This document shows positions 6,741-58,766 of a stretch of DNA of 64,000 nt, one piece after another. Below the pieces are notes generated by a model that saw only the letters and a list, made by a program, of their open reading frames with translations, was not told the origin of the DNA and did not search any database. The stretch comes from a phage. Every line of letters begins with the position of its first letter. The first letter of the stretch is position 1. Position numbers and translations under genes: made by a program. The DNA is taken from the sequence record PZ151149.1; one strand, written 5' to 3'.

Positions 6741-7217
6741 TTATTTTTCTTGATGCTCGCGCTCGTACTTTTCGAAATAAAATTCTACTGGCTGATCGTG
6801 GATTGAAAGCAAGCCAAAGCGTTTAGCCGCACGTAATCCCATGTTACGTTGAATGTACTTCTGGAAGTTCTCGCGTATACACTTACGCCAGTATTCTAAG
6901 CCCATACAGCTTTTATAAAGATTGCATTGCACACACGCCGGATTCATGTTATCAAGTATATCATGTTCCGGTTTATGCATTCCTACAACCTTATACTTCC
7001 ACGATCCATCATCATTACGGGCAATTCGTCCATTTTCATCATAGACTACCTTTGAGCGTCGCAATACTGGTTTGATGTGGTCTGCGTGCCAGCGATCCCC
7101 TAGTTCCTCGCCACAATAGGCACAACGTCCACCATATTTCATTTTCAGGATCTGGCGTTGCTCTTTCTTTGACAATTTTTTAGGTTTAGGGGCTTTCGCC
7201 CCTTCATTATCACACAT
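6741..7217 (-). CDS. HNH endonuclease (158 aa)
   Basis: CAYCGEEL ... HADHIKP ... N ... CVQCN: His-Me finger with two CxxC pairs; overlaps ligase stop. Confidence 0.6.
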   Translation of the reverse strand: MCDNEGAKAPKPKKLSKKEQRQILKMKYGGRCAYCGEELGDRWHADHIKPVLRRSKVVYDENGRIARNDDGSWKYKVVGMHKPEHDILDNMNPACVQCNLYKSCMGLEYWRKCIRENFQKYIQRNMGLRAAKRFGLLSIHDQPVEFYFEKYEREHQEK

Positions 7218-8706
7218 CGAATACCTCTTTTACTGTATTTGCAGTGGTCTTGTCGTAGCGAATACGTTTGATGATCGGGAGAAATAAAGAGAACTCCGGT
7301 TCATCTTCTTTACGTGATTTGCTTCGAATGTACCCGTTGCATGTCATCTCAATGACTTTTCCAATCAGGTTATGACGGTCAGCCCATAACATTTCTCGGT
7401 CGAGTTCATTTCGACGATCGAACGGAATTACACGTTCAATACCATCATCACCTTTTTCGGTTGTGGTGTCGGTTAATCCCGATCCGGTGTTAGTCATCAT
7501 TCGTCCGCACGCACTACGGACAGTAAAACCGCCTACCTTATTAGGATCTTTACTATGCGGATATACATCAACAATTTCAGCGTCGAAGTCAATCACTTCT
7601 TTAAATTTAACCTGGTCTTTACTGCGACGATCTTCAAATACACCATGTAAATTTTTAAGGATAATACCTTCTAAGCCCATGTTTACATAGCGATGATATA
7701 CTTCGCGAGCTTCATCGATATTGTTAACTACAGTATTTTCGATTATCTGAACACGAGGATCGTTAAGTTCTTCAACAATCTGTTTTAGTTCTTCGAATCG
7801 ATCTTTATATTGCTTCGTGGCTTTCTCGTTTCCGTAATACACATCACGGTCGATAACATCCCAGACAGTATAAACAATACATTGGGCTTCTTCTTTTGGA
7901 ATAGTTCCTTTAAGTGATTTGTTGAGGATACCATTTCCGGTCTGACGGTCTGCAACAACGGATTCTTTTACTGCTTCCGCTACTGGCGTTAATGGCATTT
8001 CCTCTTCTTCAAATATCCATGACAGAGTACCATCATAAACGCTCTCAACGAAGTTCTGCGCTGGTGTTTGCGAAAGGGTAGGCATATATACCAATTCGCC
8101 ATCTAGAACAATTCCACGGCCTCGTAGACGCTCTAAAACCGCAAACAAATCATCAAGTCCCTGATAGGTATTACCTGAACGGGTATAGATTGCTAATGTT
8201 TCCCCGTCAATATCAGCCATACCACGAGCACCATCGCTTTTAAGTTGTGCATACGCCGGATACTTGATATTAGCAATAGTCTTATCAGAACATGACGATG
8301 CAAGGTGACACGGTTGCTGGGGGATCAGTTTCTTCCACACCTTGTTTGCAGTGGTAGCGGAACAACCACACTCCAGATCACGATTCAGGACCATCATTGC
8401 AACTTTAGCATCATCCTCTGACAAGCAAGTCAGAGTATCGGTAACTAGCTGTAATGCTGCATTACCAGTTATTTGACGCGTGGCAAGTTTATTTTTAAAG
8501 ACCTGTAATGCGCCAGATAAAGACAATACAGACGAATAGCGCGATGGTTTATCGTATTTCTTTACGCCGAACGTAACCTGTTTGCAATATGCCAGATAAA
8601 AGCATTCTTTAAGCGTTTCATTGCTTGCAGATTCTTTCAGGATCTTTTCTTTCAGCGATGTTTTGTCGGTCGCTGCAAGCTGGTTAATGATATTAAGAAT
8701 TGACAT
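7210..8706 (-). CDS. 30: ATP-dependent DNA ligase (T4 gene 30 type)
   Basis: About 498 aa; adenylation motif QLKSDGARG (KxDG); ATG at 8706 with GAGGTGA SD (track start 8712 is GTG). Confidence 0.85.
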   Translation of the reverse strand: MSILNIINQLAATDKTSLKEKILKESASNETLKECFYLAYCKQVTFGVKKYDKPSRYSSVLSLSGALQVFKNKLATRQITGNAALQLVTDTLTCLSEDDAKVAMMVLNRDLECGCSATTANKVWKKLIPQQPCHLASSCSDKTIANIKYPAYAQLKSDGARGMADIDGETLAIYTRSGNTYQGLDDLFAVLERLRGRGIVLDGELVYMPTLSQTPAQNFVESVYDGTLSWIFEEEEMPLTPVAEAVKESVVADRQTGNGILNKSLKGTIPKEEAQCIVYTVWDVIDRDVYYGNEKATKQYKDRFEELKQIVEELNDPRVQIIENTVVNNIDEAREVYHRYVNMGLEGIILKNLHGVFEDRRSKDQVKFKEVIDFDAEIVDVYPHSKDPNKVGGFTVRSACGRMMTNTGSGLTDTTTEKGDDGIERVIPFDRRNELDREMLWADRHNLIGKVIEMTCNGYIRSKSRKEDEPEFSLFLPIIKRIRYDKTTANTVKEVFDV

Positions 8707-9172
8707 TTTCACCTCGTTTTGTTAAACGTTCACGAATATCATTGAGGATACTACAAAATTCCGATTCAGTCAATATAGTCTTTAACGGATCAGTTCCACC
8801 TATGCTATGACGTAATTTCTTATTTCCTGTAGCGAGTAATGCTTTACAAAATTCTGGGTTATTCCGTGCCATCGTAACAAATGCCAGATGTACCAGTCTG
8901 TAATAATGCTCACTCATTCGATGAATCTGGCGACCCTGAAAATATAACATGTGATTCTCAATCTTTTCAGTTCTTCCGGTTCTTTTTGCTTTGCCACCGT
9001 GCATCAAAAAGATTTCTCTTTGTCTCTGAGGGTTCTTAAATCTTAGCCCCTGTAAAAATCCTTCTGTGCTGTTAATATCACAACCAAATAGACGGAATGG
9101 TCTTTTATTGAAATTGCTCAATTCACCCGATGGATAAGGTCCACCCGCATAGATATCAATTTCAGAAGTCAT
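8693..9172 (-). CDS. NADAR (YbiA/DUF1768)-like protein, putative ADP-ribose N-glycosidase (159 aa)
   Basis: GELSNFNKRPFRLFG ... STEGFLQGLRF ... ALLATG resembles recalled YbiA motifs GDFSNF ... SEHYFQAQKF ... ALLATA. Confidence 0.55.
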   Translation of the reverse strand: MTSEIDIYAGGPYPSGELSNFNKRPFRLFGCDINSTEGFLQGLRFKNPQRQREIFLMHGGKAKRTGRTEKIENHMLYFQGRQIHRMSEHYYRLVHLAFVTMARNNPEFCKALLATGNKKLRHSIGGTDPLKTILTESEFCSILNDIRERLTKRGENVNS

Positions 9173-9378
9173 TGAAACTAATCTCGCTAATCAGAGAGAA
9201 CGGATCATAATCGTCATTAGGAATATCGATAGTAATCGAATGAGGATTTACCCATACACCAAACTGGTCTTCATCGGTGAATACTTCGTTATGGATTTCG
9301 TGGATGTTTACATTCATAGTTTTCATAATAAAATTCCTTAATAATCAATAACTTACAAAATCATATAGCCAAAATATA

Positions 9379-9397
9379 GGCGGGATTATTTCCCGCC
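9379..9397 (-). terminator. hairpin terminator downstream of gene 31
   Basis: GGCGGGA-TTATT-TCCCGCC followed on minus strand by UAUAUUUUGG. Confidence 0.5.
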
Positions 9398-9408
9398 GTT
9401 TAAAATCA

Positions 9409-9732
9409 TTAACCGTAAACTACCACAATATTCTGTTTGTGTGTTACAGTCCATTTCAGGTCGATCTCTTCTTCCTTCTTAACGCCGTTAATAACGTCTG
9501 GGTGAGGAACTTTATTAAGTTTCCCATGAGGAAGCAATACAGTCTTACCCAGCAATTCTTTATCAACGTTATCACCGATATCAATAATCTTACCGACTAA
9601 AGGAATCTCTCCCATAGTTCGTTTTTGTTCGATGATAATACCAAAGTCGCTCTTTACTTCGGTCCCTGCGCTTTCCGCTTTAGCTTCAATGATCACATAG
9701 TCACCAAGTGCTTTAGGAGTTTTAACGGTCAT
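9409..9732 (-). CDS. 31: co-chaperonin GroES-like gp31 (107 aa)
   Basis: Size and position as T4 gp31; conserved NKVPHP-type motif; located between ligase and cd. Confidence 0.75.
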   Translation of the reverse strand: MTVKTPKALGDYVIIEAKAESAGTEVKSDFGIIIEQKRTMGEIPLVGKIIDIGDNVDKELLGKTVLLPHGKLNKVPHPDVINGVKKEEEIDLKWTVTHKQNIVVVYG

Positions 9733-9773
9733 AATTTTATTACCTCTTCAAATCAATACAGTTTAATGATGAA

Positions 9774-10088
9774 TTATTTATAAATTTCTACGATCTGCGC
9801 TGGAGTCAGCCCGTCTACATTAATCAGACTATCAAGCCCAAAACTACGGAAACCTTCAACTGCAATTTCATATACTGGCAAAGATGTTTCTGATTCTTTA
9901 CGCGGTTTTTCAACATTAGGAACTAACCACTTTTCGTATGTTTCGAAAGGCATCAGTGCCGGATCTCGCGTGGCGATCATCTCGCGGACAGTACCATCTT
10001 TCTTAGTAAACTGCAAAAAGTGAGTACCGACCGAAAACATTTTCTTTAGTGCTTCACGAAGTGCGATATTATCAACTTGTTCAGTCAT
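9774..10088 (-). CDS. hypothetical protein (104 aa)
   Basis: ATG at 10088 (track start 10094 is TTG) with GAAGGG SD; overlaps cd stop by 8 nt. Confidence 0.45.
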   Translation of the reverse strand: MTEQVDNIALREALKKMFSVGTHFLQFTKKDGTVREMIATRDPALMPFETYEKWLVPNVEKPRKESETSLPVYEIAVEGFRSFGLDSLINVDGLTPAQIVEIYK

Positions 10089-12506: not shown

Positions 12507-13676
12507 TTACCAATCAATCTTATCAGCCGGAATCAGTTTCTTATAATTCCGTAGATAGTAAGTTTTCATTGAATCCAGAATACGGTCATAATCAAGACCA
12601 TCAAATGCAATCATCAGACACATGAAAATATATGCTTGTGCATCACCATGTTTACGTGATTCGATAGTCGCATTTGATGCATATGTCTTTCTGTCTTCTC
12701 CCGCGTGTGCGTTATAAAATTCTGTTGCTGTCGTGAAGGCATTGCGAAGAATAGACCTGAATGCTTCCTCGAATAGCTCGATTCGTTCCAGTGCTTCCGG
12801 TTCGCCTTCATATGCAGCACGCAAATCATCGGTTTCGCTTTCTACGACATAGTAGATCAGGTTATTAGGAAACATCGATGTGTTTTTAATGTTATGCACA
12901 CCAATATACCATTCACTCTTCACTTTGAACAATTGACCGTCTTTAGTGCGTGCAACAATTCCTTCGATACCTTCTGCGGTCCGAACTTCATCAAGAATAT
13001 TGCTAAACCGCGCTGAATCAACTTGTAACGCATTTACCAGATGAGGACGTAGGATTGCATCAGCGAATAGTATTTGATGCGGTACATACTCTCCTGTGAC
13101 GTTATGGCGTACATTCAGAAGTGTTAGCGACGGTTCAGAATATTCTACAACAATTCGGTTGCTTGGTGCTGTATATTCAAAGTTGAAAGTATAATCAGAC
13201 CCAATATCAGAGATCTTAGCGCGTAGATCTGCATACTTCTCTGAATACAGAAGACCGTTTGCTCTCTCTGCCTGGCTTGAGTACAAGGCCGCTTTAGACT
13301 TCAACTGAACATAGCCGTTATCAATGTATGTGCTTACTAGACTACCGTCCATTTTGTCCATGACCATTTCCACATCTTCCGGCTTAAAGCGAGCGCGATC
13401 ATTCTCACCCAAATTAAAAAACTTCTCCATAGGACGAGATGCGATGCGGACCGGACGACCTTTATCGTCAATTTCAAACATGATCCCGCGACACTCTAAC
13501 GCATCTGGTTTATTCCACATTTCCGGTTTGCTCAAGTACAGATAACTAAAAATGCGCATACGGGTTTGCATCGCCGTAATTTCATCTTTGTAATAGAACG
13601 TATCAGATCCGTCACATAGTGCCATAAGATTTTTGAACAATGCTAAAACTTTTTTGTTGTTTTCTTTTGTTGACAT
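12507..13676 (-). CDS. ATP-dependent RNA ligase (Rnl1-like, 389 aa)
   Basis: Nucleotidyltransferase motif I DKMDGSL (KxDG) at about residue 107; size close to T4 Rnl1 (374 aa). Confidence 0.5.
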   Translation of the reverse strand: MSTKENNKKVLALFKNLMALCDGSDTFYYKDEITAMQTRMRIFSYLYLSKPEMWNKPDALECRGIMFEIDDKGRPVRIASRPMEKFFNLGENDRARFKPEDVEMVMDKMDGSLVSTYIDNGYVQLKSKAALYSSQAERANGLLYSEKYADLRAKISDIGSDYTFNFEYTAPSNRIVVEYSEPSLTLLNVRHNVTGEYVPHQILFADAILRPHLVNALQVDSARFSNILDEVRTAEGIEGIVARTKDGQLFKVKSEWYIGVHNIKNTSMFPNNLIYYVVESETDDLRAAYEGEPEALERIELFEEAFRSILRNAFTTATEFYNAHAGEDRKTYASNATIESRKHGDAQAYIFMCLMIAFDGLDYDRILDSMKTYYLRNYKKLIPADKIDW

Positions 13677-14073
13677 AATTTGTGTTCCATTCTGGTTTAA
13701 ATTTGGTGATCAAAACAGGTTCTTCGATATCGGCAGTGCTTATAATATCCTTACCCGTTGGATTCTCGATGTACAACTCAAAGCACTGGCGGTAATAGAA
13801 TGTTACTGTCTTACCTTCCTCTAGCGCCTTATGAATATTCTTACTCTTTCGAGTATCCGCCGTTGGTGTTTGTCTGTTAATGCTCGTCCGGTAATAATTG
13901 ATCCGCTTTCTGAGATTAACAGTCTGACCAATGTATACCAGTTCACCATCAACCGCAATAGCGTAAAGAACATTTAAACGGTTCTTCTGAGGCGGTAAAA
14001 TCACATCACCATCTTTACACTCTAAACATGAATATTTAACGAATCCATAGTTTTCTATTAGCTCATCAATCAT
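13612..14073 (-). CDS. GIY-YIG family endonuclease (Seg-like, 153 aa)
   Basis: VLYAIAVDGELVYIGQT ... RKRI ... E: GIY-YIG core; GAGGAAAGGA SD; 3' end overlaps RNA ligase start by 65 nt. Confidence 0.55.
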   Translation of the reverse strand: MIDELIENYGFVKYSCLECKDGDVILPPQKNRLNVLYAIAVDGELVYIGQTVNLRKRINYYRTSINRQTPTADTRKSKNIHKALEEGKTVTFYYRQCFELYIENPTGKDIISTADIEEPVLITKFKPEWNTNYVNKRKQQKSFSIVQKSYGTM

Positions 14074-14123: not shown

Positions 14124-14522
14124 TTAACTTTCCAGAATATCGCGAGCTTCGTTACGCTCCTTGATGATTTTCAGGATAAATTCCAGTTTTTCTTTGTTCA
14201 GTGTCCCGTTTTCCATTGCCTCTTTGACGGTGAACACTCCGCCACCTTGCCCGTATACAGTGACAGTGATTTCACCTAACATCGTGGTATGAAAACCGCC
14301 AATTTTCGGTGATTCGAAAGAAACAATTACCTCGCGAACAGTATTACCGTCGTTGATTTCTGAGAGGGTAATGTCGTTTTTGTAGGCGGTTGCTTTAACC
14401 ATACGGATCAGCATAGTCTGATCTGGGGAGATGGTCATTTTGTCCATTGCATGTTGCAATGCAGCGTAACCGAAAACTTTAACGAAGTCCAGAACGTCTT
14501 TGCGAGTTTGAAATTTAATCAT
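14124..14522 (-). CDS. hypothetical protein (132 aa)
   Basis: ATG at 14522 preceded by AAGGAG SD and promoter cassette. Confidence 0.5.
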   Translation of the reverse strand: MIKFQTRKDVLDFVKVFGYAALQHAMDKMTISPDQTMLIRMVKATAYKNDITLSEINDGNTVREVIVSFESPKIGGFHTTMLGEITVTVYGQGGGVFTVKEAMENGTLNKEKLEFILKIIKERNEARDILES

Positions 14523-14555
14523 CTTGATACTCCTTAGTTGTTTTGGTATGGGAGT

Positions 14556-14584
14556 ATCTTACTACTCCCGTGATATGCTGTCAA
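14556..14584 (-). promoter_or_regulatory. sigma70-type early promoter cassette
   Basis: TTGACA (14584..14579), 17 nt spacer, TAAGAT (14561..14556). Confidence 0.65.
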
Positions 14585-14592
14585 CTGCTTTT

Positions 14593-14742: not shown

Positions 14743-14780
14743 TTGATTCTCCTTAAAGTGTATTTCGTTTCGATGGGGGT

Positions 14781-15028: not shown

Positions 15029-15061
15029 TTTGATTCTCCTTTGTTTCGTTTCGATGGGAGT

Positions 15062-15090: not shown

Positions 15091-15097
15091 CTACTTT

Positions 15098-15893: not shown

Positions 15894-17050
15894 AGATATT
15901 TCCCGAATCGGTTGTAGTCGTCGTCTGTTAAATCGGTATTAACCTGAGATACCAGATACATAATCTCTACTTCCTGCGCTGCATTCTGTACTTCGTCAGA
16001 GTTCAACCATTTACGCATCCACGGTAACGGATGACGACGAACACTAAACGGGCTTTTCAGTCCGGCAGCGCGCATACGGGAATCTGCCAGGTATTCTACA
16101 TAGGTTTTCAGAATTTCCGGTGACAGGTTGGGAATTGCTCCCATTGCGAATAGGTGGTCTACCCATTCTTTTTCTTGCTCGACAACATCCAGAAAGATTT
16201 TCGTTGCTTCGCCTTCAAGTTCTTCCGCAATCTGTTTCCACTCATCACCATCAACCCCCGTTTGCCATTGACGAATAATGTATTGTGTTCCTTTTAAGTG
16301 AAGTTGTTCATCACGCGCAATAAATTTCATGATCTTCGCGTTACCTTCCAGTAAACCACGTTCGGCAAAGCTGAAAGTACATGCAAAGGACACATAAAAA
16401 CGAATTGCTTCCAAAGCATTAACGCAGTGTGCACACAGATAAATCGAAGCCATCAGATCTCGTTTTGTATCTTCAAAAAATCTTCTTTCATCATCTAATG
16501 CTGTCTGGTCGTCTCGTTCTTCCCAATAGCGGAGATCTTCTTTTGCATTCTCGTACTTGCGAATCCAATAGAGAACATCATCATAATATTTCCCGATAGA
16601 TTCCGCTCGCTTCATGATAGCAGGGTTATCGATGATCTGGTCAAACTCACTAGCCGGATCAATGAAACAGTTACGCATAATGTGTGTATAGCTTCGGCTA
16701 TGAATCGTTTCGCTGAATGTCCATGTTTGTAACCATGTATCGAGAGTTGGATCAGATACAATTGGACCAAATACACGGGCTGGCGCTCTGCCTTGAATCG
16801 AATCTAGCAAAGTTTGATAACGTAAGTTCTCGGTGAAGAAACGCTTTTCAACATCGCTCATATTCAGATATTGAATGCGGTCAGTCGCTAGCGAGATCTC
16901 TTCTGGACGCCAGAAAAATGACAGAGATTTTTCAATTAATTCTTCAAATACTTGATGACGCTGAATATCATAACGAGCAATCCCTAAATCACTACCAAAA
17001 AACATCGGTTCAGTCATAATATCAACATGTTCACGATTAAATACGCTCAT
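15890..17050 (-). CDS. nrdB: ribonucleotide reductase small subunit
   Basis: About 386 aa, class I RNR beta-subunit size and ferritin-like sequence; directly downstream of nrdA as in T4; ATG at 17050 (track start is GTG). Confidence 0.9.
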   Translation of the reverse strand: MSVFNREHVDIMTEPMFFGSDLGIARYDIQRHQVFEELIEKSLSFFWRPEEISLATDRIQYLNMSDVEKRFFTENLRYQTLLDSIQGRAPARVFGPIVSDPTLDTWLQTWTFSETIHSRSYTHIMRNCFIDPASEFDQIIDNPAIMKRAESIGKYYDDVLYWIRKYENAKEDLRYWEERDDQTALDDERRFFEDTKRDLMASIYLCAHCVNALEAIRFYVSFACTFSFAERGLLEGNAKIMKFIARDEQLHLKGTQYIIRQWQTGVDGDEWKQIAEELEGEATKIFLDVVEQEKEWVDHLFAMGAIPNLSPEILKTYVEYLADSRMRAAGLKSPFSVRRHPLPWMRKWLNSDEVQNAAQEVEIMYLVSQVNTDLTDDDYNRFGKYL

Positions 17051-17052
17051 CA

Positions 17053-17592
17053 CTATTCTCCATCAATTTTGTTTATATTGTAGCCTACGTTGCCTTTTTC
17101 TATTTCTTTCAACGCAACCGAATTAAACGCTCTTGCCGCATCTTGTTCGCTATCAAATCTCCCTATATGAACACTCTTTCCTTGTATATTAATATGAACT
17201 AGCCATCTATTTGTGTACTTACACCAACTTACCCCGTTATATTTTGATGACGCACCTTTAAATTTAGTCCTGTTTCTGTTATTGACAGAATAATCAGTGC
17301 CTCGTAAATTTTCTATATGATTGTTCAGCTTGTTTCGGTCGATATGGTCTATAACTTTAGGCTTATGTCCATGAAACATATGATAAATCACATGATGTAT
17401 TAACTTCTTTCTATTGTCTACTGTTAGTTGAAGATATCCTCCGTTATGTGGACTTCCAACCTCATCACCAACTTTAACTTTATTGCTTGTTGAAACCTTT
17501 CTGAAAAGTTTACCGTCTTCGTATTTAAATAGATAGTGATACCTTTCGTAAAGTATTCGGTCCTCTTCCGTATAATGTATTACCTCATACAT
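17053..17592 (-). CDS. HNH-AP2 homing endonuclease (179 aa)
   Basis: HNH core DHIDRNKLNNHIENLR followed by AP2 DNA-binding domain YNGVSWCKYTNRWLVHINIQGKSVHIGRFDSEQDAARAFN; inserted between nrdA and nrdB. Confidence 0.7.
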   Translation of the reverse strand: MYEVIHYTEEDRILYERYHYLFKYEDGKLFRKVSTSNKVKVGDEVGSPHNGGYLQLTVDNRKKLIHHVIYHMFHGHKPKVIDHIDRNKLNNHIENLRGTDYSVNNRNRTKFKGASSKYNGVSWCKYTNRWLVHINIQGKSVHIGRFDSEQDAARAFNSVALKEIEKGNVGYNINKIDGE

Positions 17593-17602
17593 AATATTTT
17601 AC

Positions 17603-22642: not shown

Positions 22643-22972
22643 TCAAATCAGTTTGAAATAGTTTTCGTTTACATTTTCTTCTGTGATTGCTGTCTTAAAT
22701 TCTTGACCGTTATCCGGTGTGATGAAATAACGGTCAGAATAATCACGAAAACGTTTTAAGTGAGATACCCCAACATTAACACCATGTTCCAAAAAACGAA
22801 AGGTAATCATTTTTGGTTCATATCGATAGTCGCTGGTTAACACAGTACCATCCCCGCGACGGGCTTCATAAACCGTAATACATTCACGATTAGCGGCTTT
22901 AAGGCATTCTTCAATAGTGCCGCACGAGATAATACTTACTTTTTCATCTACGATTTGTTCTACAGTCCACAT
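22643..22972 (-). CDS. hypothetical protein (109 aa)
   Basis: ATG at 22972 with GAGGA SD; possible promoter (GTTGCA, 17 nt, TATAAT) at 23005..23034. Confidence 0.5.
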   Translation of the reverse strand: MWTVEQIVDEKVSIISCGTIEECLKAANRECITVYEARRGDGTVLTSDYRYEPKMITFRFLEHGVNVGVSHLKRFRDYSDRYFITPDNGQEFKTAITEENVNENYFKLI

Positions 22973-23004
22973 AATATAATCCTCTCTTTATTTCGATATG
23001 TGCA

Positions 23005-23442
23005 TTATACTTTGATTCTTACAAACTTGCAACCTAATTCTTTTTCAATTTGTTTCTGGCGCTCTATGTCCTGAGTAATTTTGTATTTGTGTTCCGGTTC
23101 GTCGATTTCATAAGCAACGTTATTAACCGGATCATAACCATCAATTCTATACCCCAATATAGGGTATTGTCGTTTTAATTTTATATTCAAAAGCTGTTCT
23201 ATTGTGTCTAGTGCAATCTTTTCGGCAGCTGATAATCCAAAACGTATTCCAAAATATTGTTTCCTCACCGCTTCCGCAAGTTCTTCTGTTAAAATTATTT
23301 GCTTCTGTTTTCTACCATACACATCAAAATATTCACTATAATCATAACACAGACCTGTGTTTCTTGCAACCTTTTTTATGTCTCTAGTTACATTGGCATG
23401 ACGTTTATTAAATTCTTTCGCAATATCCAGTGAGCTAATCAT
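23005..23442 (-). CDS. Rha-like N-terminal domain fused to PD-(D/E)xK-type endonuclease-like C-terminus (145 aa)
   Basis: N-terminus SSLDIAKEFNKRHANVTRDIKK resembles phage Rha regulatory domain; C-terminus GYRIDGYDPVNNVAYEIDEPEH ... GCKFVRIK resembles DUF559-type nuclease fold. Confidence 0.5.
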   Translation of the reverse strand: MISSLDIAKEFNKRHANVTRDIKKVARNTGLCYDYSEYFDVYGRKQKQIILTEELAEAVRKQYFGIRFGLSAAEKIALDTIEQLLNIKLKRQYPILGYRIDGYDPVNNVAYEIDEPEHKYKITQDIERQKQIEKELGCKFVRIKV

Positions 23443-23469: not shown

Positions 23470-23497
23470 ATTATACATTACCACATCATCATGTCAA
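23470..23497 (-). promoter_or_regulatory. probable early promoter
   Basis: TTGACA (23497..23492), 16 nt spacer, TATAAT; followed by GGAGGA SD and ATG at 23442. Confidence 0.45.
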
Positions 23498-23559
23498 CAC
23501 CTTTTTCATAAAATTTTAGGCAATAAAAAAGCCTCCCCGAAGGAAGGCTTTAAAATTCA

Positions 23560-24534
23560 TTACATCCCTAACAGAGCGTCAAGATCATCCAGATCAGAAG
23601 CGGAGGAAGTACCGCCACCCAGGTCCAGAGATGCCATCAGGTCATCAGCGGAAGAACTCGACGCTGCGATAGCTGCGGTAGAAACTGACGCGGCGATAGC
23701 TGAGGTAGTGCCAGCATCGAATGCATTCATCTGTGCGTCAAAATCGTCAAGCTGGCTGTTAATCGCTGCCGCAGCACTGGAAGCCGCAGCACCAGCTACC
23801 ATAGAAACGCCCATAGTTTTCTTAAATTTGGTTTCCAGTTCATCGAACGGTTTAAACTGGCTAGGCGCTACAATCTCACCCAGATCAACCATGTTTTCCA
23901 TCAGATATTTCTGATATGCTTCGTCTTCAATCTTCGGAAGCTGTGATTGCTGCATGAAACGAGAATCATCATAGTTCTGGTGTTTATCAACCTTCTTAGC
24001 TTTCAGGAGGAAGTTAGCACCGGAGAACACACAAGTTACATCTACCGGAACTTCGCCCATGTCGGTATTCACGTTCACCATTGCAACGATCTTATCATAA
24101 ATTTTCTGACCGAAGCGGAATTTGAATACCTTACCTTCGTTTTCTGGTGCTTGAGGATCTTTCAGTACCAGAATATTTGCGTAGTAAGAGGCTTTACGCT
24201 TAATCAGTTGCCATTCTGTTTTATCGGTATTGTACAGATCTTTTTCGTTAATATATTTGCACACAGGGCAAGAATCAAAATCACCGTGGGTGCTGGAGCA
24301 GTTTTCCCAATACCATTTGCCATTAACTTTGAAGGAATGGTTTACCAGTTTCACAATCGGCAGACCGTCTTCTGTCTTAGACGGCAGGAAGCGAATCAGG
24401 GCTTCACCGTTACCCGCTGCATCAGTCTTAATCTTCCACTCTTTCGGATCTTCTTTGGAGAAACCGTTGCCACCTTTCAGTGCGGCCAGTTGAGCTTGCA
24501 GTTTGGAGCTATCTTGACGACGGAACATGTTCAT
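23560..24534 (-). CDS. 32: single-stranded DNA-binding protein gp32
   Basis: 324 aa; zinc-binding H/C cluster CSSTHGDFDSCPVC; acidic C-terminal tail DLDDLDALLGM; synteny 59-32-frd. Confidence 0.85.
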   Translation of the reverse strand: MNMFRRQDSSKLQAQLAALKGGNGFSKEDPKEWKIKTDAAGNGEALIRFLPSKTEDGLPIVKLVNHSFKVNGKWYWENCSSTHGDFDSCPVCKYINEKDLYNTDKTEWQLIKRKASYYANILVLKDPQAPENEGKVFKFRFGQKIYDKIVAMVNVNTDMGEVPVDVTCVFSGANFLLKAKKVDKHQNYDDSRFMQQSQLPKIEDEAYQKYLMENMVDLGEIVAPSQFKPFDELETKFKKTMGVSMVAGAAASSAAAAINSQLDDFDAQMNAFDAGTTSAIAASVSTAAIAASSSSADDLMASLDLGGGTSSASDLDDLDALLGM

Positions 24535-24594
24535 AATTATACCTCTTTATACATTAACTATTGATTAATCTACGTTTTATACTATATCAGATAC

Positions 24595-25191
24595 TTAATT
24601 GCTTGTCAATATTTTATCAATTATATCTAACAGTTTTGGTTTTCTATTTTCAAATTCTAACATCTCTTCGGGAGAAATGTCAACTACTTCTGTTTTGTTG
24701 AAAAAGTTTGGGTCTATAGCATCAGCAACAAAGTTTCTCGCAAGTGCTGCCGCTTTCTCATGAACATATATTCCCAAATATATCAACTTCTTTCTTTCGA
24801 CCTGAATATTGGCAACATATTTACCATCTCGTTTATAAAGACTAACACCGATATATTCAGATGATCGACCTTTCTGTTTACCCATATTTCTTGAGTTCTG
24901 TTGCTCGTTCGCATCTCTCAAGTTTTCAATCCGATTATCTGTTATAATTCGGTTAATATGGTCAACGTATTTTGGCATGTATCCATGATGCATAAAGAAA
25001 ATTATTCTATGCTCTTTATGATGTTTACCATCGATACATACCAATCGGTATCCATGACTAGGATTAACTCCACCCGCTCTAGATCCGACTTTGTGCTTTC
25101 GGTTTGTCGATATCTTGCGAATCAGCTTACCGTTATCATATTTAAAGAGTTCATGACAACGAGCATACAATTCAGGATCATATGTTTTCAC
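24595..25191 (-). CDS. HNH-AP2 homing endonuclease (198 aa)
   Basis: Paralog of 17053..17592: HNH core DHINRIITDNRIENLR plus AP2 domain YIGVSLYKRDGKYVANIQ; GTG start; inserted between 59 and 32. Confidence 0.7.
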   Translation of the reverse strand: MKTYDPELYARCHELFKYDNGKLIRKISTNRKHKVGSRAGGVNPSHGYRLVCIDGKHHKEHRIIFFMHHGYMPKYVDHINRIITDNRIENLRDANEQQNSRNMGKQKGRSSEYIGVSLYKRDGKYVANIQVERKKLIYLGIYVHEKAAALARNFVADAIDPNFFNKTEVVDISPEEMLEFENRKPKLLDIIDKILTSN

Positions 25192-25855
25192 CTTTTAACC
25201 TCGATATTTCTTTACACTCTTTAACTACTTTAACAAATAATGCTCTTGCTTTTGCGGCGTCAATAACAAGTAGTTTCTTGTACGCCTTCATTTTAACACT
25301 ATAAGTTTGCCAAATCAAGTCTTTGGCTACCTTGTCGTGTTCGTCGATTATATTTAGAAAGCTATCTAACAACATAAACGACTCAAACGATATAATCCGA
25401 TTTTGCAGTAGCTTAAAGATACCGCTTGTTTCGGTTGCGGGATTGTATGTAATTAGCTCTTTAAGAGTAACCCCGCGTTTTTCGGAGAAATATACCAGAC
25501 TTTTAATGTCATCGTCAAACCTTGTTGCAGCATCAGTGATCTTACCGATATACTCCATGTAAAATCCGTATGCGTCAACATCAGTGATTTCACCTACCCA
25601 TGCATCGGTATTAGCTACCAGATTGCTTAGGAATAGGAAGTATAATTCTCTTAGATTGTACTTTTCCGCTAATTTAGCAAAATAATACTTATCTCTGCGT
25701 TTATTGAATGCGGCATCAGATAACCGCATCCTCCAATTATATTTTACGCAATCATAACGCCCGTTCATATGAGCTTTCATCATGCAATATAACATATACA
25801 CAGATTTAGCATTAATTCGCATATCTGGACCTGGAGGAAGACGGTTTCTGATCAT
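25178..25855 (-). CDS. 59: helicase loader gp59
   Basis: 225 aa; N-terminus MIRNRLPPGPDMRINAKSVYMLYCMMKAHMNGRYD resembles recalled T4 gp59 N-terminus; position upstream of 32. Confidence 0.65.
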   Translation of the reverse strand: MIRNRLPPGPDMRINAKSVYMLYCMMKAHMNGRYDCVKYNWRMRLSDAAFNKRRDKYYFAKLAEKYNLRELYFLFLSNLVANTDAWVGEITDVDAYGFYMEYIGKITDAATRFDDDIKSLVYFSEKRGVTLKELITYNPATETSGIFKLLQNRIISFESFMLLDSFLNIIDEHDKVAKDLIWQTYSVKMKAYKKLLVIDAAKARALFVKVVKECKEISRLKGENI

Positions 25856-53599: not shown

Positions 53600-54268
53600 T
53601 TATCCCCTTTGTTTCTTAACTGAATTTGGATCTGGATTTTCTGGCAAGTCTTCCAGACCCATAGCATAACGTTGTGCATAGATTAGCATAAGAATATCGC
53701 GAGCGCAATCATGAATTGCATCATGCGCTATAAATCCGTCTAGCGTACCCATTGGTAACGGGCATTCACACATACCGCGATGCATCAATGTACGCTCAAT
53801 GGCGGTACGAACATCTCGGATGTTCCAGAATCGCACAGGTTCAAGATTGAACGTCTCACGGGTATTATGAGCACGTCGAATCATATCAACCAGCAACGGA
53901 ATATCAAACGCATTACCGCGTGACCACATTACTGATTTAACCGGATCTACTCCTACAGATTCACAGAATGCGTTAAAACGCGCTAAACCTTCTTTAGTTG
54001 ATACTTCCGTACCATTTGTGATTAATTGCTTTCTCATGCCTTCTGAGGCGGTATTCTTCCACCATTCAACCACACCATGATCAAACACCCTTACACCTTT
54101 CTGGGAAGGAATATCAAATTTTACCAGAAAGGAATTGTCAACCAGTTCTTTAAATGTAGGTGGATTGTGCGGATCTTCTTTAAATCCGATTGCCGCCATA
54201 TTGATCACCGCCCCATCAGGCGGATAACCTAAACTTTCAAAGTCAATCATTAAATCCACTGGAAGCAT
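53600..54268 (-). CDS. dexA: 3'-5' exonuclease (DexA-like, DnaQ fold)
   Basis: Exo motifs IDFESLG and HDAIHDCARD; ATG at 54268 with GGAGGA SD; position between dda and gene 39 as in T4. Confidence 0.7.
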   Translation of the reverse strand: MLPVDLMIDFESLGYPPDGAVINMAAIGFKEDPHNPPTFKELVDNSFLVKFDIPSQKGVRVFDHGVVEWWKNTASEGMRKQLITNGTEVSTKEGLARFNAFCESVGVDPVKSVMWSRGNAFDIPLLVDMIRRAHNTRETFNLEPVRFWNIRDVRTAIERTLMHRGMCECPLPMGTLDGFIAHDAIHDCARDILMLIYAQRYAMGLEDLPENPDPNSVKKQRG

Positions 54269-54269
54269 T

Positions 54270-54512
54270 TTAAATATCCTCCGCGATATGCCGGAACAAA
54301 TCCAGATCGTTTTTATCCAGAATGAAACCGCTACAATCAATAATCCCGTTACCGTAATTATCGGTTAACAGTCGGTCCGTTGCCATGTATGCGCGTACTT
54401 TGTTGTTAAAATTAATTACATGTTGTGCATAGTCACAATGAATCTTTTGACGGTTCCACGCGACAATTGATTGTAGATGTATTACATTAGCAATATTATT
54501 AATAACAACCAT
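54270..54512 (-). CDS. hypothetical protein (80 aa)
   Basis: ATG at 54512; follows a 55-aa gene. Confidence 0.45.
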   Translation of the reverse strand: MVVINNIANVIHLQSIVAWNRQKIHCDYAQHVINFNNKVRAYMATDRLLTDNYGNGIIDCSGFILDKNDLDLFRHIAEDI

Positions 54513-54513
54513 A

Positions 54514-54681
54514 TCAAAAACCTCGCTTAGTGAAATGCTCGATCATTTTATTGATACATGCAGCTTCACTATCGCCGGACACGTTCCAGCCGTATAGACC
54601 CCATCTAAAGCACATGGTAACAGTTCCATTGTGACGGCTTACCGTCACATCATTAAATTCTGGGATACTTCGCATAATCAT
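54514..54681 (-). CDS. hypothetical small protein (55 aa)
   Basis: Below track cutoff; MIMRSIPEFNDVTVSRHNGTVTMCFRWGLYGW...; GAGGA SD. Confidence 0.35.
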   Translation of the reverse strand: MIMRSIPEFNDVTVSRHNGTVTMCFRWGLYGWNVSGDSEAACINKMIEHFTKRGF

Positions 54682-54691
54682 AATAATTTCC

Positions 54692-56083
54692 TCAAATATA
54701 GTCTACTCGATACCTCGCACGGGTAACACCCACATATAATAACTGCATTGCCAATTCAAAGTCAACATTGTCTGTACACATGCAAGGAGTATACAGGAAC
54801 ACGCGGTCTACGCTGATCCCTTGTGACTTATGAATGGTGCAAGCTGGTAATGCTTTTACATTCAAGAACATACGCTTCATCGTCCAGAATGAATCCCAAT
54901 CTGGTTTAAATTTTGGATTCTCTTTCTTCATTTCGCGATATTGTCCGGCGACCGTATTCAGATAGATAGAGAAAATGTTCTTCTGACGTTGTTCTGTCAG
55001 AATGTTGATTTCTACTAAATCCGGTTTATCTGTAGTGATTCCGACTGCATCTAAACCGACTTTCTGATTTAGGATTTCTTTGTCTTCGTCATCATCGACG
55101 CTTTCCACTTTCAGAGTATAGCCTAAAACTGGTTGCGGATCGACCCCCGTGCAACGTAATATAAATTCACGCGGGATGACCTCTTTAACTCGGATCATCT
55201 CACCATTGTTAAAAATAACATTGGGAATCTTCTTCCCGCGTTCATCTCGCAGATATTCGATCAATGGTTCCTGAGTAACCAGAATTTCATCTACAATCAC
55301 TGGTTCATCGGTGTTATAAACGCGCTTACGTACAATTTCATTGAGTTTTTCGACGCTCTTGTTAGTGTAGGCCAGAATACGGTTTTCTAGAAGGTCTTCC
55401 GGCGTTTTAACGGTTTCGAAATAATGCTTCATAAATTCCGGCAGAGTTGAGCTATGGAATACACCCTCGTTACCGCACTGCTTTTCGAATACCCATTTAC
55501 CGTTACGGACAGCGGTCGCCACATCAATGATCGGTGCATTAGATCGTTTAATTTCTGTCAACTCCACGTTTTGAAAATTTTCATCCGTGAAGAAAGGAGA
55601 AATTGACGTTGCACCGCTCGGATCAACTGGTCGTAACTGGTGCGGATCGCCAACTGCAATAACAACAATTCGACCGTTGATACTCTTCATGAGAATATCA
55701 AATAACTTCTTATCGACCATACTCGCTTCATCAACAATGATGATCTGAACATCATCTAGCTTAGGAGTATCTTTTTGCTCAAATACTTGAGTATCTTCAT
55801 AGTTGGTCGGGTTTAGTCGCAGTAGTGCATGTAAAGTAAATGCTTGACGACCTACCGCTTTACTCAAAACTTTTTTAGCTTGGTGGGTAGGCGTTGCCAA
55901 AACCACACCAGTTACACCACGGCGGACCATTTCCTGAACAATGAATTTCATCATTGCGGTTTTACCAGTACCCGCCGCACCACGGACAGTTGTATGCTTC
56001 TTTTGTTCAATGCGTTTCATTAGAACATCAAAAGCATGTTTTTGCCCGTCTGTCAACATATCGAAAGTTAATACTCTGCTCAT
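54692..56083 (-). CDS. dda: Dda-type SF1 DNA helicase
   Basis: 463 aa; Walker A GAAGTGKT, Walker B IIVDEASM; position next to dexA. Confidence 0.8.
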   Translation of the reverse strand: MSRVLTFDMLTDGQKHAFDVLMKRIEQKKHTTVRGAAGTGKTAMMKFIVQEMVRRGVTGVVLATPTHQAKKVLSKAVGRQAFTLHALLRLNPTNYEDTQVFEQKDTPKLDDVQIIIVDEASMVDKKLFDILMKSINGRIVVIAVGDPHQLRPVDPSGATSISPFFTDENFQNVELTEIKRSNAPIIDVATAVRNGKWVFEKQCGNEGVFHSSTLPEFMKHYFETVKTPEDLLENRILAYTNKSVEKLNEIVRKRVYNTDEPVIVDEILVTQEPLIEYLRDERGKKIPNVIFNNGEMIRVKEVIPREFILRCTGVDPQPVLGYTLKVESVDDDEDKEILNQKVGLDAVGITTDKPDLVEINILTEQRQKNIFSIYLNTVAGQYREMKKENPKFKPDWDSFWTMKRMFLNVKALPACTIHKSQGISVDRVFLYTPCMCTDNVDFELAMQLLYVGVTRARYRVDYI

Positions 56084-56397
56084 TATCCTAAAATCCTCAC
56101 CTTGCGAACACAGATAGTATTGAGTTCTCGCCGTACCCGTTCTTTTTCATATTCAGGAATTTTATATTCGATACCATCCCGAACAATTTCAGAAGACCGG
56201 ATTATGCCAAATTTTCGTTTAGGTACAACCTTGTATTTCGGTTCACCTGCCAATAGACTCTCACAATAATCTATCTGATCACACATTGACGCTAACGCAG
56301 CATCATGTGTTTCGCAAGTTAGGACGCGACCTTTCGCGTCCACTGAGTATTGAAAGAATCCGTCTTTATCACGATAACATACAGCAAATACATGCAT
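56083..56397 (-). CDS. hypothetical protein (104 aa)
   Basis: ATG at 56397, stop overlaps dda start. Confidence 0.45.
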   Translation of the reverse strand: MHVFAVCYRDKDGFFQYSVDAKGRVLTCETHDAALASMCDQIDYCESLLAGEPKYKVVPKRKFGIIRSSEIVRDGIEYKIPEYEKERVRRELNTICVRKVRILG

Positions 56398-57152
56398 TAT
56401 AAACCTACCTTCGCTTTCATCAATTCAATCCACGACGCATCAATCGGAAGCCCGTATTTCACGCGTTCTTTTTGTGCTGGCGTTAAGTTCTCATACTTAG
56501 AAAGAGATTCAATCAAAACGCTGGTATATTTTAGCACGATTTCGGTATTGTTTGCAATAGCCTTAAGTTTTTCTTCTTTCTTGTTGATTTCGCTAAGGGC
56601 TTGCTTGAGATCTGCAATTTTCTGATAACGTTCTTCCATACGGAAGAGAGTATTTTTAATCGCTCTCTCGGCTGCCTCTGCTTTCTCCGGTTCGTTGTGC
56701 TTTTTGTGGCGCTCGATTGCTAATTTCTTTTCTTCGATTGCCATTTCCTGATTTTTGATGCGATTCTCGTTAAGTTCGATCCACTCGATGTACTTCGCAC
56801 GTAGGGCAATTTCATCATCAGAAAGTTTACCGTTAGTTCCTAGTTCCTGGATCTCTTTAAGAGATTCGATAGTGTGATTACCACGGAAAGAATTGTATTT
56901 CAGTTTAACTGGAATCACATTGCCATCAACATATCCCAGATTGCAATCAATACGCTCTAAGGAGAGTCCATCATCACCTTCACCAAACTCCTCACCTGAA
57001 TATGCGCAATGAGTCTGGCGATAGATGTTACGCACAGTGACTAAGCTCATAGAGAAGTCTTTGTTACGACGAGAAGCGCCAGCCATGATAGAGTTCAGAC
57101 GGAAAACAACCAGCGCCAATTCTTCGTTAGATTTAAAAGCAAACAGTTTCAT
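56397..57152 (-). CDS. hypothetical protein with C-terminal coiled coil (251 aa)
   Basis: ATG at 57152 after GGAGAA SD and promoter; C-terminal heptad-rich region. Confidence 0.5.
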   Translation of the reverse strand: MKLFAFKSNEELALVVFRLNSIMAGASRRNKDFSMSLVTVRNIYRQTHCAYSGEEFGEGDDGLSLERIDCNLGYVDGNVIPVKLKYNSFRGNHTIESLKEIQELGTNGKLSDDEIALRAKYIEWIELNENRIKNQEMAIEEKKLAIERHKKHNEPEKAEAAERAIKNTLFRMEERYQKIADLKQALSEINKKEEKLKAIANNTEIVLKYTSVLIESLSKYENLTPAQKERVKYGLPIDASWIELMKAKVGL

Positions 57153-57180
57153 AATTGATTCTCCTTAGTTGGTATGTGTG

Positions 57181-57210
57181 TATTATTGTCTATCTGGTTT
57201 GTGTTGTCAA
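57181..57210 (-). promoter_or_regulatory. sigma70-type early promoter cassette
   Basis: TTGACA (57210..57205), 17-18 nt spacer, AATAAT/ATAATA -10. Confidence 0.55.
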
Positions 57211-57213
57211 CAC

Positions 57214-57717
57214 TTAAATTAAAGAAAATTTGTAAATCTCTATCAGGTCGCCATTGCACGCGTAAACTTCCTCAATCTCATCAAGGATCATGGTCGTCCC
57301 TGTCTTGTATATGCACTCGCGCTCATCCGCCAACATAGCATACAAAGACAGTCGAGTAGTCGGATTGTCATATTCTTTAGACACCACTCGGTCAATAGCA
57401 TGTTCGTAATAATTCATGCAAGGCTTGGTGGGTTTTATTGCAATAATCTTTCCTGTTGCATAAACATCGGTTGCAAAGTCCTCTGCTGTTGATTGCAGTG
57501 GCGTAAAGCTCATAGGACGCTCTACAACGAAAGAATCGCCTACAATTAAGGTATCCAGCTTACGACCTTCTCTTTTGCTCACACCGCGATACAAGGCTTC
57601 GTGATGCACTAACCGCTCAGTCTTTTCAATCAATCCATTAAGGATCGACATATCGATATTTTCTTTAGAGTTCATCACTTCATCAATGATGTTAAGTTCT
57701 TCTGGTGTGAATTGCAT
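57214..57717 (-). CDS. Mod-like ADP-ribosyltransferase candidate (167 aa)
   Basis: R-S-ExE-like pattern (ALYRG ... LQSTAED ... ADERECIY); located in the dda-to-61 region where T4 carries modA/modB. Confidence 0.45.
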   Translation of the reverse strand: MQFTPEELNIIDEVMNSKENIDMSILNGLIEKTERLVHHEALYRGVSKREGRKLDTLIVGDSFVVERPMSFTPLQSTAEDFATDVYATGKIIAIKPTKPCMNYYEHAIDRVVSKEYDNPTTRLSLYAMLADERECIYKTGTTMILDEIEEVYACNGDLIEIYKFSLI

Positions 57718-57726
57718 AATAAAAAA

Positions 57727-57750
57727 GCCTCCAATCTTTCGACGGGAGGC
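57727..57750 (-). terminator. possible terminator (hairpin plus U6)
   Basis: GCCTCC ... GGAGGC stem with long loop, followed on minus strand by UUUUUU. Confidence 0.3.
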
Positions 57751-57798
57751 ATAATAAAACCATGATAGAGTAGTGTCAACTATAAAGTGTATGTGATC

Positions 57799-57806
57799 TA
57801 TAAATA
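57799..57806 (+). promoter_or_regulatory. T4-type late promoter TATAAATA for plus-strand HNH gene
   Basis: Exact TATAAATA 30 nt upstream of ATG 57837, AAAGGAG SD. Confidence 0.55.
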
Positions 57807-57836
57807 AGTTTGTCAGAACTAAAAGGAGATCACAAA

Positions 57837-58766
57837 ATGAACTATAAACGTATTTATGATAACCTGATTGAACGTGCTAAGACTAGAACTATCGACGGAT
57901 ATACAGAAAAGCATCACATCATACCACGTTGTATGAATGGAAGCGATGATGATAGCAATCTAGTTAGACTCACCCCAGAGGAACATTACATTGCTCACCT
58001 TCTGTTAGTTAAGATTTACCCAGATAACAGTAAATTGGTTTATGCTGCAAATATGATGTGCGTTTCTTCTGATTCACATAATGGAGAAAGACAGTCAAAT
58101 AAACGTCATGGTTGGTTGCGTAGAAAAATGGCTGAGGCACATAGTAAAAGAATCCGCGATAGAATGGAGAACGATCCTGAATATAGAGCTAAGGTTTCGG
58201 AATGGGCTAGAAAAATGGGTAAAGCCATGAAAGGAGTTAAGCGAGGACCGGAATTTAGCAGAAAGTTGGCAGAAAGAAACAGAAATACCGTGATGAAAGA
58301 AGAAACTAAACGTAAAATCGGGGAAGCCAACAAAGGAAGGAAACGTACAGAAGAATATAAAAGAAAACATAGTGAGCGGTATAAGGGTGAAGGTAATCCG
58401 ATGTATGGTAAACGAGGAAAGGACCATCCGGCATATGGTACTAAACCGTGGAACAACCAAACATCATTTGTTGAGCAGAAAGCATGGTGGCGGTTCGCTG
58501 GCATGTTCTATGACTGGTATCAGATGGATATTGACCGTGGGAAACATAAACGCCACGGTCATAAAAGAATGCTTGATGAATTGGGTTTTGTTGGTTGGCG
58601 AGAAAAAGAGCCAGCCGCAGCAAGACGATCAATTGAAATGTTTGCTAAAGGCTGGAATCCTTATGAAGACCAAGAATGGTTAGATTATATTAATACCCGC
58701 TTTCCAAACGACGATAGTTTTCCGCGTTCTTCAACATATACAAAACAAACAAATCCTTTGCAGTAA
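57837..58766 (+). CDS. HNH homing endonuclease (309 aa) on opposite strand
   Basis: KHHIIPRCMNGSDDDSNLVRLTPEEHYIAH: HNH core; lysine/arginine-rich C-terminal half; only plus-strand gene in a minus-strand block. Confidence 0.7.
   Translation: MNYKRIYDNLIERAKTRTIDGYTEKHHIIPRCMNGSDDDSNLVRLTPEEHYIAHLLLVKIYPDNSKLVYAANMMCVSSDSHNGERQSNKRHGWLRRKMAEAHSKRIRDRMENDPEYRAKVSEWARKMGKAMKGVKRGPEFSRKLAERNRNTVMKEETKRKIGEANKGRKRTEEYKRKHSERYKGEGNPMYGKRGKDHPAYGTKPWNNQTSFVEQKAWWRFAGMFYDWYQMDIDRGKHKRHGHKRMLDELGFVGWREKEPAAARRSIEMFAKGWNPYEDQEWLDYINTRFPNDDSFPRSSTYTKQTNPLQ

Follow-up and report, generated by a model that had tools for sequence, protein, structure and literature searches.

Four probable homing-type endonuclease cassettes and two resident nuclease genes in an RB49-like coliphage genome

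The phage sequence record PZ151149.1 was analysed over a stretch of 64,000 nucleotides, called the window in the following; all positions refer to this stretch. It carries six nuclease genes between positions 6741 and 58766. Most probably, four of them are sporadic homing-type cassettes, namely two HNH-AP2 genes (one between nrdA and nrdB, the other between genes 59 and 32), a gene with fused Rha and DUF559 domains between gene 32 and frd, and a Mob-like HNH gene beside gene 56, and the other two, denA and an HNH gene that follows the DNA ligase gene, are fixed residents.

Free-standing homing endonuclease genes (HEGs) are textbook material in T4-type phages. The phenomenon itself is well known, and the Rha-DUF559 cassette alone is an unclassified, unusual member. 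What we add is the site-by-site convergence on the neighbourhoods of T4 mobE, segG, and segF, the foreign alleles linked to the cassettes, the correction of two over-calls, and the cassette combining Rha with a Vsr-like nuclease.

Results

The window belongs to Krischvirus, the RB49/JSE-like coliphages of the T4 type. A megablast search with positions 5000–26000 and 54000–62000 returned 59 Krischvirus records at about 95–97% identity, including RB49, JSE, Phi1, and GEC-3S. According to the annotations of RB49 and JSE, the genes of the region are ligase, cd, pseT, rnlA, denA, nrdB, nrdA, td, frd, 32, 59, dsbA and, further on, modB, 56, 61, and 41.

A sequence-only reading had described six free-standing nuclease genes at classic T-even homing-endonuclease insertion sites. 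All six open reading frames (ORFs) were found where that reading had placed them, and Pfam and phrog matches uphold the nuclease domains assigned to them. The nuclease motifs are intact: HNH in both HNH-AP2 proteins and in the Mob-like protein, and the D/E/H residues that are invariant in the DUF559 family; the same holds for denA and the post-ligase HNH protein. A search for NCBIfam names for the six nuclease proteins gave 0 matches above the cut-off.

The homing-type character stands for four of the genes, which are sporadic and have clean empty sites in most of the 59 records; it does not stand for denA and the post-ligase HNH gene. Occupancy, counted in records and not in independent genomes, is 3/59 for the HNH-AP2 gene at nrdA/nrdB, 12/59 for that at 59/32, 1/59 for Rha-DUF559, and 3/59 for the Mob-like HNH gene. 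All cassettes are intact, with ratios of nonsynonymous to synonymous divergence (dN/dS) of 0.03–0.12. Their synonymous divergence (dS) is 0.29–0.73, compared with 0.11–0.15 for the backbone; hence, the cassette pool is older and wider than the host genomes. The cassette junctions are base-precise and intergenic, and the Shine-Dalgarno (SD) and promoter signals of the downstream genes are kept.

As for the insertion sites, the positions at nrdA/nrdB, 59/32, and gene 56 are those of T4 mobE, segG, and segF (PMC2988022, Table 1). The overlaps with the coding ends of neighbouring genes are real, except for the 1-nt overlap of the HNH-AP2 gene with nrdB. This one is an artefact of the ORF caller because a GTG start was called; the conserved ATG of nrdB is at 17050, two bases past the TAG.

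The features of the four cassettes are as follows.

17051..17602, minus strand: HNH-AP2 cassette at nrdA/nrdB, 552 bp (ORF 17053–17592, 179 amino acids (aa)); from junction mapping
16773..17013, minus strand: HEG-linked polymorphic tract at the nrdB 5' end (nt 38–278 from the ATG at 17050); from an alignment of fixed differences
24534..25202, minus strand: HNH-AP2 cassette at 59/32 (ORF 24595–25191, 198 aa, GTG start); from junction mapping
24581..24609, minus strand: promoter-like TTGACA-N17-TATAGT across the HNH-AP2 stop codon; from sequence inspection
24502..24528, minus strand: first ~27 nt of gene 32 with cassette-linked substitutions; from an alignment of five carriers and four non-carriers
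57783..59185, no strand assigned: 1403-bp replacement block relative to RB49 with the Mob-like gene (57837–58766, plus) and a divergent gene 56 allele (58690–59214, minus); from the RB49 alignment
57799..57806, plus strand: T4-type late promoter motif TATAAATA, 30 nt upstream of the ATG at 57837; SD AAGGAG at 57823–57828
23005..23442, minus strand: fusion gene of an Rha N-terminal domain and DUF559 (Vsr-like PD-(D/E)xK), 145 aa; N-terminal part of Phage_pRha E = 3e-8, DUF559 E = 5e-5
23470..23551, minus strand: terminator hairpin (23525–23551) and sigma-70-type early promoter (TTGACA 23492–23497, TATAAT 23470–23475, N16); from sequence inspection
22970..23010, minus strand: downstream copy of an imperfect direct repeat (-10 box, 5' untranslated region (5'UTR), SD, and ATG), with the upstream copy at 23440–23476; from sequence comparison

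nrdA/nrdB: The cassette takes the place of the 15-nt spacer (TAGTGAGGTGAATTA) that separates a small ORF from nrdB in RB49. It is promoterless, and a new SD sequence for nrdB comes from its 3' end (GGAGAATAG). Only G5211, G2494, and G37-3 carry it. The protein matches HNH_3 (E = 1e-9, 38.2 bits, cut-off 24.8), and the AP2 match (31.0 bits) is just below the Pfam cut-off of 33.3; dN/dS is 0.03–0.04. When three carriers were aligned with three non-carriers, 32/32 fixed differences, the majority synonymous, fell in nt 38–278 of nrdB and 0 in the ~880 nt that remain. With a 401-nt probe of this tract, identity is 95–96% for the three carrier records and 85–90% for the 56 non-carriers. The tract flanks the segment coding for FFWRPEE (16898–16918). 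Nt 38–278 may thus be the target and co-conversion zone of the nuclease, as the position of the linked differences suggests.

In other relatives, the nrdA/nrdB gap contains other endonucleases or a DNA methyltransferase. Delraymugoa, Aragogtheria, and KMB43 have a longer nrdB–nrdA region with an annotated DNA (cytosine) methyltransferase in place of an endonuclease, and the region of LF73P4 is equally long and unannotated. The nrdB genes of pEJ01 and G5211 are longer than those of the window and RB49 by a 27-nt insertion of nine codons (window ~16400–16700; 396 aa vs 387 aa), irrespective of the HEG status.

59/32: The second HNH-AP2 protein is related to the first (42% identity over 152 aa, E = 1e-33), as the sequence-only reading had it, and both match phrog_99 at about 1e-50 (1e-48 to 1e-51). 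Its HNH_3 match is clear (E = 5e-12, 45.6 bits, cut-off 24.8); AP2 scores 23.4 bits (cut-off 33.3), and the AP2 region matches the AP2 domain of plant WRI1 (E = 0.0018). Both window proteins are therefore predicted to have an HNH_3 domain for catalysis and, C-terminal to it, an AP2 domain for DNA binding. The cassette takes the place of the 59/32 spacer together with about eight codons at the end of gene 59 and the 5'UTR of gene 32, with the gene 59 junction after GAAATATC; the GTG start falls within the final codons of gene 59. Empty sites are 586 bp shorter. The five carrier copies compared (window, pEJ01, ELT4, MIZ4, and 011D4) are all intact (5/5), and dN/dS is 0.07–0.12.

The insertion displaces the native early promoter of gene 32, which is annotated as TTGACA-N16-TATAAT in RB49, and the promoter-like sequence across the HNH-AP2 stop codon appears to replace it. 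The start of gene 32 reads CGT CGT ... AGC in carriers vs AAA CGC ... TCT in non-carriers. The substitutions are patchy, and the endpoints vary between the window, pEJ01, and 011D4. This pattern suggests that the first ≤27 nt of gene 32 are a short conversion tract with variable endpoints.

modB/56: The Mob-like gene lies between modB and gene 56 (dCTPase) and overlaps the latter convergently at the 3' ends by 77 nt. The homology to RB49 ends at 57782, just past the stop of RB49 gene 56, and resumes at 59186, so that the replacement block takes in almost all of gene 56. The protein matches NUMOD3 in two stretches (E = 1e-6), HNH weakly, and phrog_655 "homing endonuclease" (E = 4e-78), and it has an intact EKHHIIP...N...H motif (EKHHIIPRCMNGSDDDSNLVRLTPEEHYIAH). 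The predicted layout is hence Mob-like, with an N-terminal HNH (HH...N...H) and C-terminal NUMOD-type repeats, and is assigned by motifs and phrog. A search for relatives in PDB found none.

Apart from the window phage, only G37-3 (98%) and JSE (92%) carry the gene. The window gp56 is 97–98% identical to those of the carriers and ≤57.5% identical to those of the other 56 Krischvirus records. A tblastn search for the donor of this foreign allele in 50,697 phage records gave nothing above 57.5% outside the three carriers. The nearest homologs of the endonuclease (43–44%; Klebsiella phages and phT4A) likewise overlap a dCTPase gene. Between the window and JSE, dS is 0.29 for the endonuclease gene and 0.60 for gp56. 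The motif of the late promoter that the sequence-only reading had noted ahead of the ATG is present: it occurs once on the plus strand of the regions examined (5000–26500 and 56000–60500), lies within the inserted block, is absent from RB49, and is conserved in JSE.

On the other side of gene 56, between 56 and 61, phiS has a different HNH endonuclease (4517–5080; window ~59214–59223), as do KMB43 and ELT3 by annotation. Thus, gene 56 has HEG sites on both sides within the genus.

32/frd: The insert at ~23011–23440 lies between gene 32 and the ORF upstream of frd, and GGAGG precedes the gene. The earlier description as a fusion of Rha with a PD-(D/E)xK nuclease is correct at the level of the fold. 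The C-terminal part has a predicted Vsr-like nuclease fold resembling the catalytic domain of I-Bth0305I. Among 32 homologs, D101, E112, D114, E115, H118, D125, R128, and R142 are invariant. The spacing of the invariant residues E74/E82, D101, E112/D114, H118, and D125 is similar to that of the EDxHD residues E170-D196-N208-H213-D222 (PMC3239194). Searches by phmmer and with a 32-sequence profile against PDB found no sequence homology to I-Bth0305I or Vsr. A link at the sequence level was therefore discarded, and the connection consists of the fold and the Pfam DUF559 match only.

The upstream region has what is described for PeSL (promoter/stem-loop) cassettes, i.e., a putative stem-loop terminator, a sigma-70-like promoter, a variable ORF, and a junction between -10 box and ATG. 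In RB49 and Phi1, PeSL crossovers occur between the -10 box and the ATG (PMC2839356). The empty site of JSE has the same early promoter once, there driving the next ORF, and a single copy of the -10-to-ATG repeat that flanks the insert in the window. Because the repeats stand at both ends of the insert and once in JSE, recombination between promoter cassettes is the best explanation of the insertion. The window and pEJ01, the one other carrier, share a divergent 3' end of gene 32, which is linked to the insert.

We found 276 full-length homologs, chiefly in prophages and metagenomes, and almost all are labelled "Rha family transcriptional regulators". The homologs of E. coli prophages follow a full-length Rha gene near the terminase, a context that is uninformative on mobility. 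The metagenomic homolog P0007 is identical to the window protein in its C-terminal DUF559 half and different in its N-terminal Rha half, which suggests shuffling at the domain level in this family. The gap between 32 and frd contains a 485-aa "endonuclease" in RB49 (RB49p240, 17079–18536), a GIY-YIG nuclease family protein in Skers, an endonuclease also in MIZ4, and smaller ORFs or nothing elsewhere. In view of this varied content, the gap is a multi-cargo hot-spot.

We tentatively propose that the Rha-DUF559 proteins could form a so far overlooked family of free-standing endonucleases, of homing type or targeting genomes, which would join an Rha recognition module to a Vsr-like catalytic fold and, in T4-type phages, travel on early-promoter PeSL cassettes. 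The protein may instead be mainly a regulator or a weapon, that is, an early DNA-binding nuclease directed against the DNA of the host, of prophages, or of competing phages, rather than a homing enzyme. This is possible, and its N-terminal domain from the Rha regulator family, its sigma-70 promoter, unlike those of T4 HEGs, and the prophage settings of its homologs speak for it. On the other hand, the predicted fold is the one used by the homing endonuclease I-Bth0305I, and the gene is extremely sporadic and lies in a gap known as an HEG hot-spot, where RB49, MIZ4, and Skers have other endonucleases.

Proposed spread of the cassettes

In a mixed infection, the nuclease would nick or cut a conserved essential gene beside the empty site of a relative that has no cassette. 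Recombinational repair would then copy the cassette and a flanking stretch of donor DNA into the cut genome, and the carrier would escape attack through silent polymorphisms in its own target. The nrd HNH-AP2 gene would be read through from the nrdA operon and would target the first ~280 nt of nrdB. For the 59/32 HNH-AP2 nuclease, the predicted target is the 59/32 spacer and the 5' end of gene 32; as this cassette brings a replacement promoter for gene 32, its loss would be costly. The Mob-like HNH gene, with its late-promoter motif and antisense to its neighbours, would target gene 56 and be inherited together with the foreign, presumably resistant gp56 allele. Rha-DUF559 would be expressed from its early promoter and may have been inserted by recombination between promoter/5'UTR repeats of the PeSL type; its nuclease may or may not contribute to its spread. 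For all four cassettes, cleavage, target identity, immunity, and super-Mendelian inheritance are thus predicted properties.

Several points weigh against this interpretation. The 59 records include about six GenBank/RefSeq duplicates, which reduces the number of independent genomes behind the occupancy counts. The target genes are assigned solely by the position of linked polymorphisms, and the divergent flanks could be the result of ordinary mosaic recombination in which the gene was included by chance. The 59/32 cassette has hardly any divergent flank. Of the 59 records, only that of pEJ01, the closest overall relative, has the Rha-DUF559 insert (99%); the linkage of this insert to the gene 32 3' end may hence reflect shared ancestry. 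Its junction repeats point to PeSL shuffling, not to double-strand-break repair, and its early promoter is of a kind used by no T4 homing endonuclease (PMC2988022).

One may ask whether the four sporadic genes spread simply as accessory cargo, through homologous recombination or through PeSL exchange, so that the nuclease is irrelevant to the spread and the flanks are mere mosaics. The -10-to-ATG repeats bracketing the Rha-DUF559 insert lie exactly in the PeSL crossover zone, PeSL-like repeats are abundant nearby, and in other relatives these gaps contain genes other than nucleases, for example DNA methyltransferases and small ORFs. We nevertheless consider this explanation unlikely. Three of the four cassettes have no PeSL flanks and are located at the positions of experimentally proven T4 HEGs (PMC2988022). 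The nrdB tract is one-sided and limited to the region attacked by MobE, a related HEG family keeps its association with gene 56 across genera, and the catalytic motifs of the cassettes are intact and under purifying selection.

Resident nuclease genes

13612..14073, minus strand: denA, GIY-YIG, 153 aa; PF01541 E = 1e-4, phrog_1111 E = 5e-52
6741..7217, minus strand: post-ligase HNH gene, 158 aa; HNH PF01844 E = 5e-6, phrog_2118 E = 8e-55

Both genes had been counted among the mobile ones, and both stand at the same place in every relative examined, which refutes this on position.

denA: Endonuclease II of T4 nicks and cuts host DNA early in infection. In a phmmer search, residues 4–134 of the window DenA matched the structure of the T4 enzyme, 2WSH (E = 8e-38). 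The gene has the same annotation and position in RB49 and JSE, where it overlaps rnlA, and is collinear in 5/5 relatives aligned. By homology and position, we regard 13612–14073 as a full-length ortholog of T4 Endonuclease II that is not mobile. The reported overlap with the rnlA start is present in the window and is 65 nt or 14 nt long, according to the rnlA start chosen. Compared with each of five relatives, the window DenA has four nonsynonymous substitutions, which appear to be private to the window phage.

Post-ligase HNH: This gene is found in 59/59 records at 97.5–100% aa identity, and no empty site was seen among them. Compared with five relatives, it shows 9–14 synonymous and 0 nonsynonymous differences, a constraint like that of ligase or primase. 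It thus appears to be fixed in the genus under very strong purifying selection and is not a demonstrable homing endonuclease. It is translationally coupled to DNA ligase (gene 30), and the overlap with the ligase stop described before is confirmed, as the HNH ATG and the ligase TGA share ATGTGTGA (8 nt). It may have a role in DNA metabolism. Beyond the genus, temperate and sipho-type phages encode its relatives, small HNH proteins with ≤44% identity.

Two other assignments were considered for the post-ligase HNH protein and rejected. It is not gp49 (T4 EndoVII), as Pfam Endonuclease_7 scores 13.3 bits (cut-off 23.6) and the PDB matches at E ≤ 10 include no EndoVII chain. The location of several siphovirus homologs close to the ends of their records had suggested a terminase-associated packaging HNH; in HK225 and Bcep176, the two cases whose context was inspected, the surroundings are early replication or nin regions.

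That all six genes are free-standing homing endonucleases is very improbable: each has a nuclease domain, EndoII and the Seg enzymes share the GIY-YIG superfamily, and the one "other HNH" putative HEG listed each for RB49 and Phi1 may be the post-ligase HNH gene (PMC2993671), but the orthology and collinearity of denA and the presence of the post-ligase HNH gene in every record, with no empty site and no nonsynonymous change, contradict it.

Other features of the window

Apart from the tail-fibre mosaic and small ORFs, a search for further nuclease inserts relative to RB49 found no other gene-sized unique block in 5884–64000. A Pfam scan of ten additional ORFs, among them most of the larger ones of 1–5883, found no nuclease domains. 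A 2.4-kb segment (36494–38887) in the distal tail-fibre/adhesin region has no RB49 homolog and probably represents host-range mosaicism. Small window-specific segments that have no RB49 counterpart are located at 6197–6461, 40275–40506, 42100–42467, and 43211–43565; they contain short ORFs with no Pfam match where tested and are typical turnover of hyperplastic regions.

Families of repeated intergenic elements occur at 5007–5058, 5218–5265, 6661–6708, and 14516–15100, with a GGGAGT...ACTCCC stem-loop between TTGACA-like and -10 boxes. They fit the description of PeSL cassettes, and one lies directly downstream of the post-ligase HNH gene. Between genes 31 and 31.1, pEJ01 (5426–6037) and G37-3 (5740–6344, annotated as a NUMOD4-motif protein) have an extra gene that the window does not have (~9732–9774). 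This gap is another sporadic endonuclease-like site.

Discussion

The window shows clearly how unrelated endonuclease families have converged in nature on the same few essential phage genes (nrdB, 32, and 56). The cassettes drag foreign alleles of essential genes between phages, here that of gp56 in full and ~240 nt of nrdB, which bears on mosaicism in therapeutic RB49-like coliphages and on the choice of phylogenetic markers. If the Rha and Vsr-like nuclease is active and site-specific, it would be a new combination of DNA recognition and catalysis among homing endonucleases, and hundreds of prophage "Rha regulators" would need re-annotation. If the family is indeed of homing type, early-promoter regulation would be a mode seen for no T4 homing endonuclease (PMC2988022).

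Comparison with known systems

RB49 and JSE: The HNH-AP2 and mob-like putative HEGs of RB49, JSE, RB16, and RB43 have the same domain architectures and belong to the same phage group as the window. A survey of 2010 listed one HNH-AP2 and one other HNH for RB49, and two mob-like, two HNH-AP2, and two other HNH for JSE (PMC2993671, Table 5). The mob-like gene of JSE beside gene 56 is the 92%-identical homolog of that of the window. The 59/32 site is empty in both phages; at nrdA/nrdB, JSE has a different HEG and RB49 none.

Endonuclease II: T4 DenA and the window copy share homology and genomic position, and nothing notable differs.

MobE: T4 mobE lies between nrdA and nrdB, is promoterless and co-transcribed with nrdA, and targets nrdB, nicking the 5' region of T2 nrdB (PMC2790892). 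The recombination point is within the first 189 nt of nrdB, and a polymorphic region (nt 114–131) is located beside the FFWRPEE codons (PMC2790892). The nrd HNH-AP2 gene occupies the same gap, is likewise promoterless, and is linked to the nrdB 5' region through the polymorphisms at nt 38–278. In contrast to MobE, the window protein is built from HNH_3 and AP2 in 179 aa and has neither a Mob-type N-terminus nor a NUMOD, and its activity is predicted.

SegG: T4 segG encodes a GIY-YIG enzyme in the 32/59 gap that targets gene 32, and the gene 32 promoters are embedded within segG (PMC2988022). The 59/32 cassette resembles it in its place upstream of gene 32 and in the promoter(-like) sequence for gene 32 within the endonuclease cassette. 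The window nuclease is HNH-AP2 instead of GIY-YIG, and its putative conversion tract is ≤27 nt.

PeSL cassettes: Those of RB49 and Phi1 share with the Rha-DUF559 insert a terminator hairpin and a strong sigma-70 promoter upstream of a variable ORF as well as the -10-to-ATG repeats (PMC2839356). Their usual cargo are ORFans, whereas the window cargo is a nuclease and lies in a conserved block of replication genes and not in a hyperplastic region.

I-Bth0305I and Hef: Unlike these, the window protein has an N-terminal Rha domain in place of NUMOD or helix-turn-helix, and its gene is free-standing with an early promoter and is not located in an intron or intein.

SegF: T4 segF is inserted at soc/56, targets gene 56, and is inherited with the donor gene 56 allele (PMC2988022, Table 1). 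The Mob-like gene of the window is equally a free-standing endonuclease gene adjoining gene 56 and linked to a donor gene 56 allele. It differs in encoding an HNH enzyme with NUMOD3, in its location on the opposite strand between modB and 56 with a late-promoter motif, in the 77-nt antisense overlap with the gene 56 3' end, and in the replacement of the whole of gene 56 at 57% protein identity.

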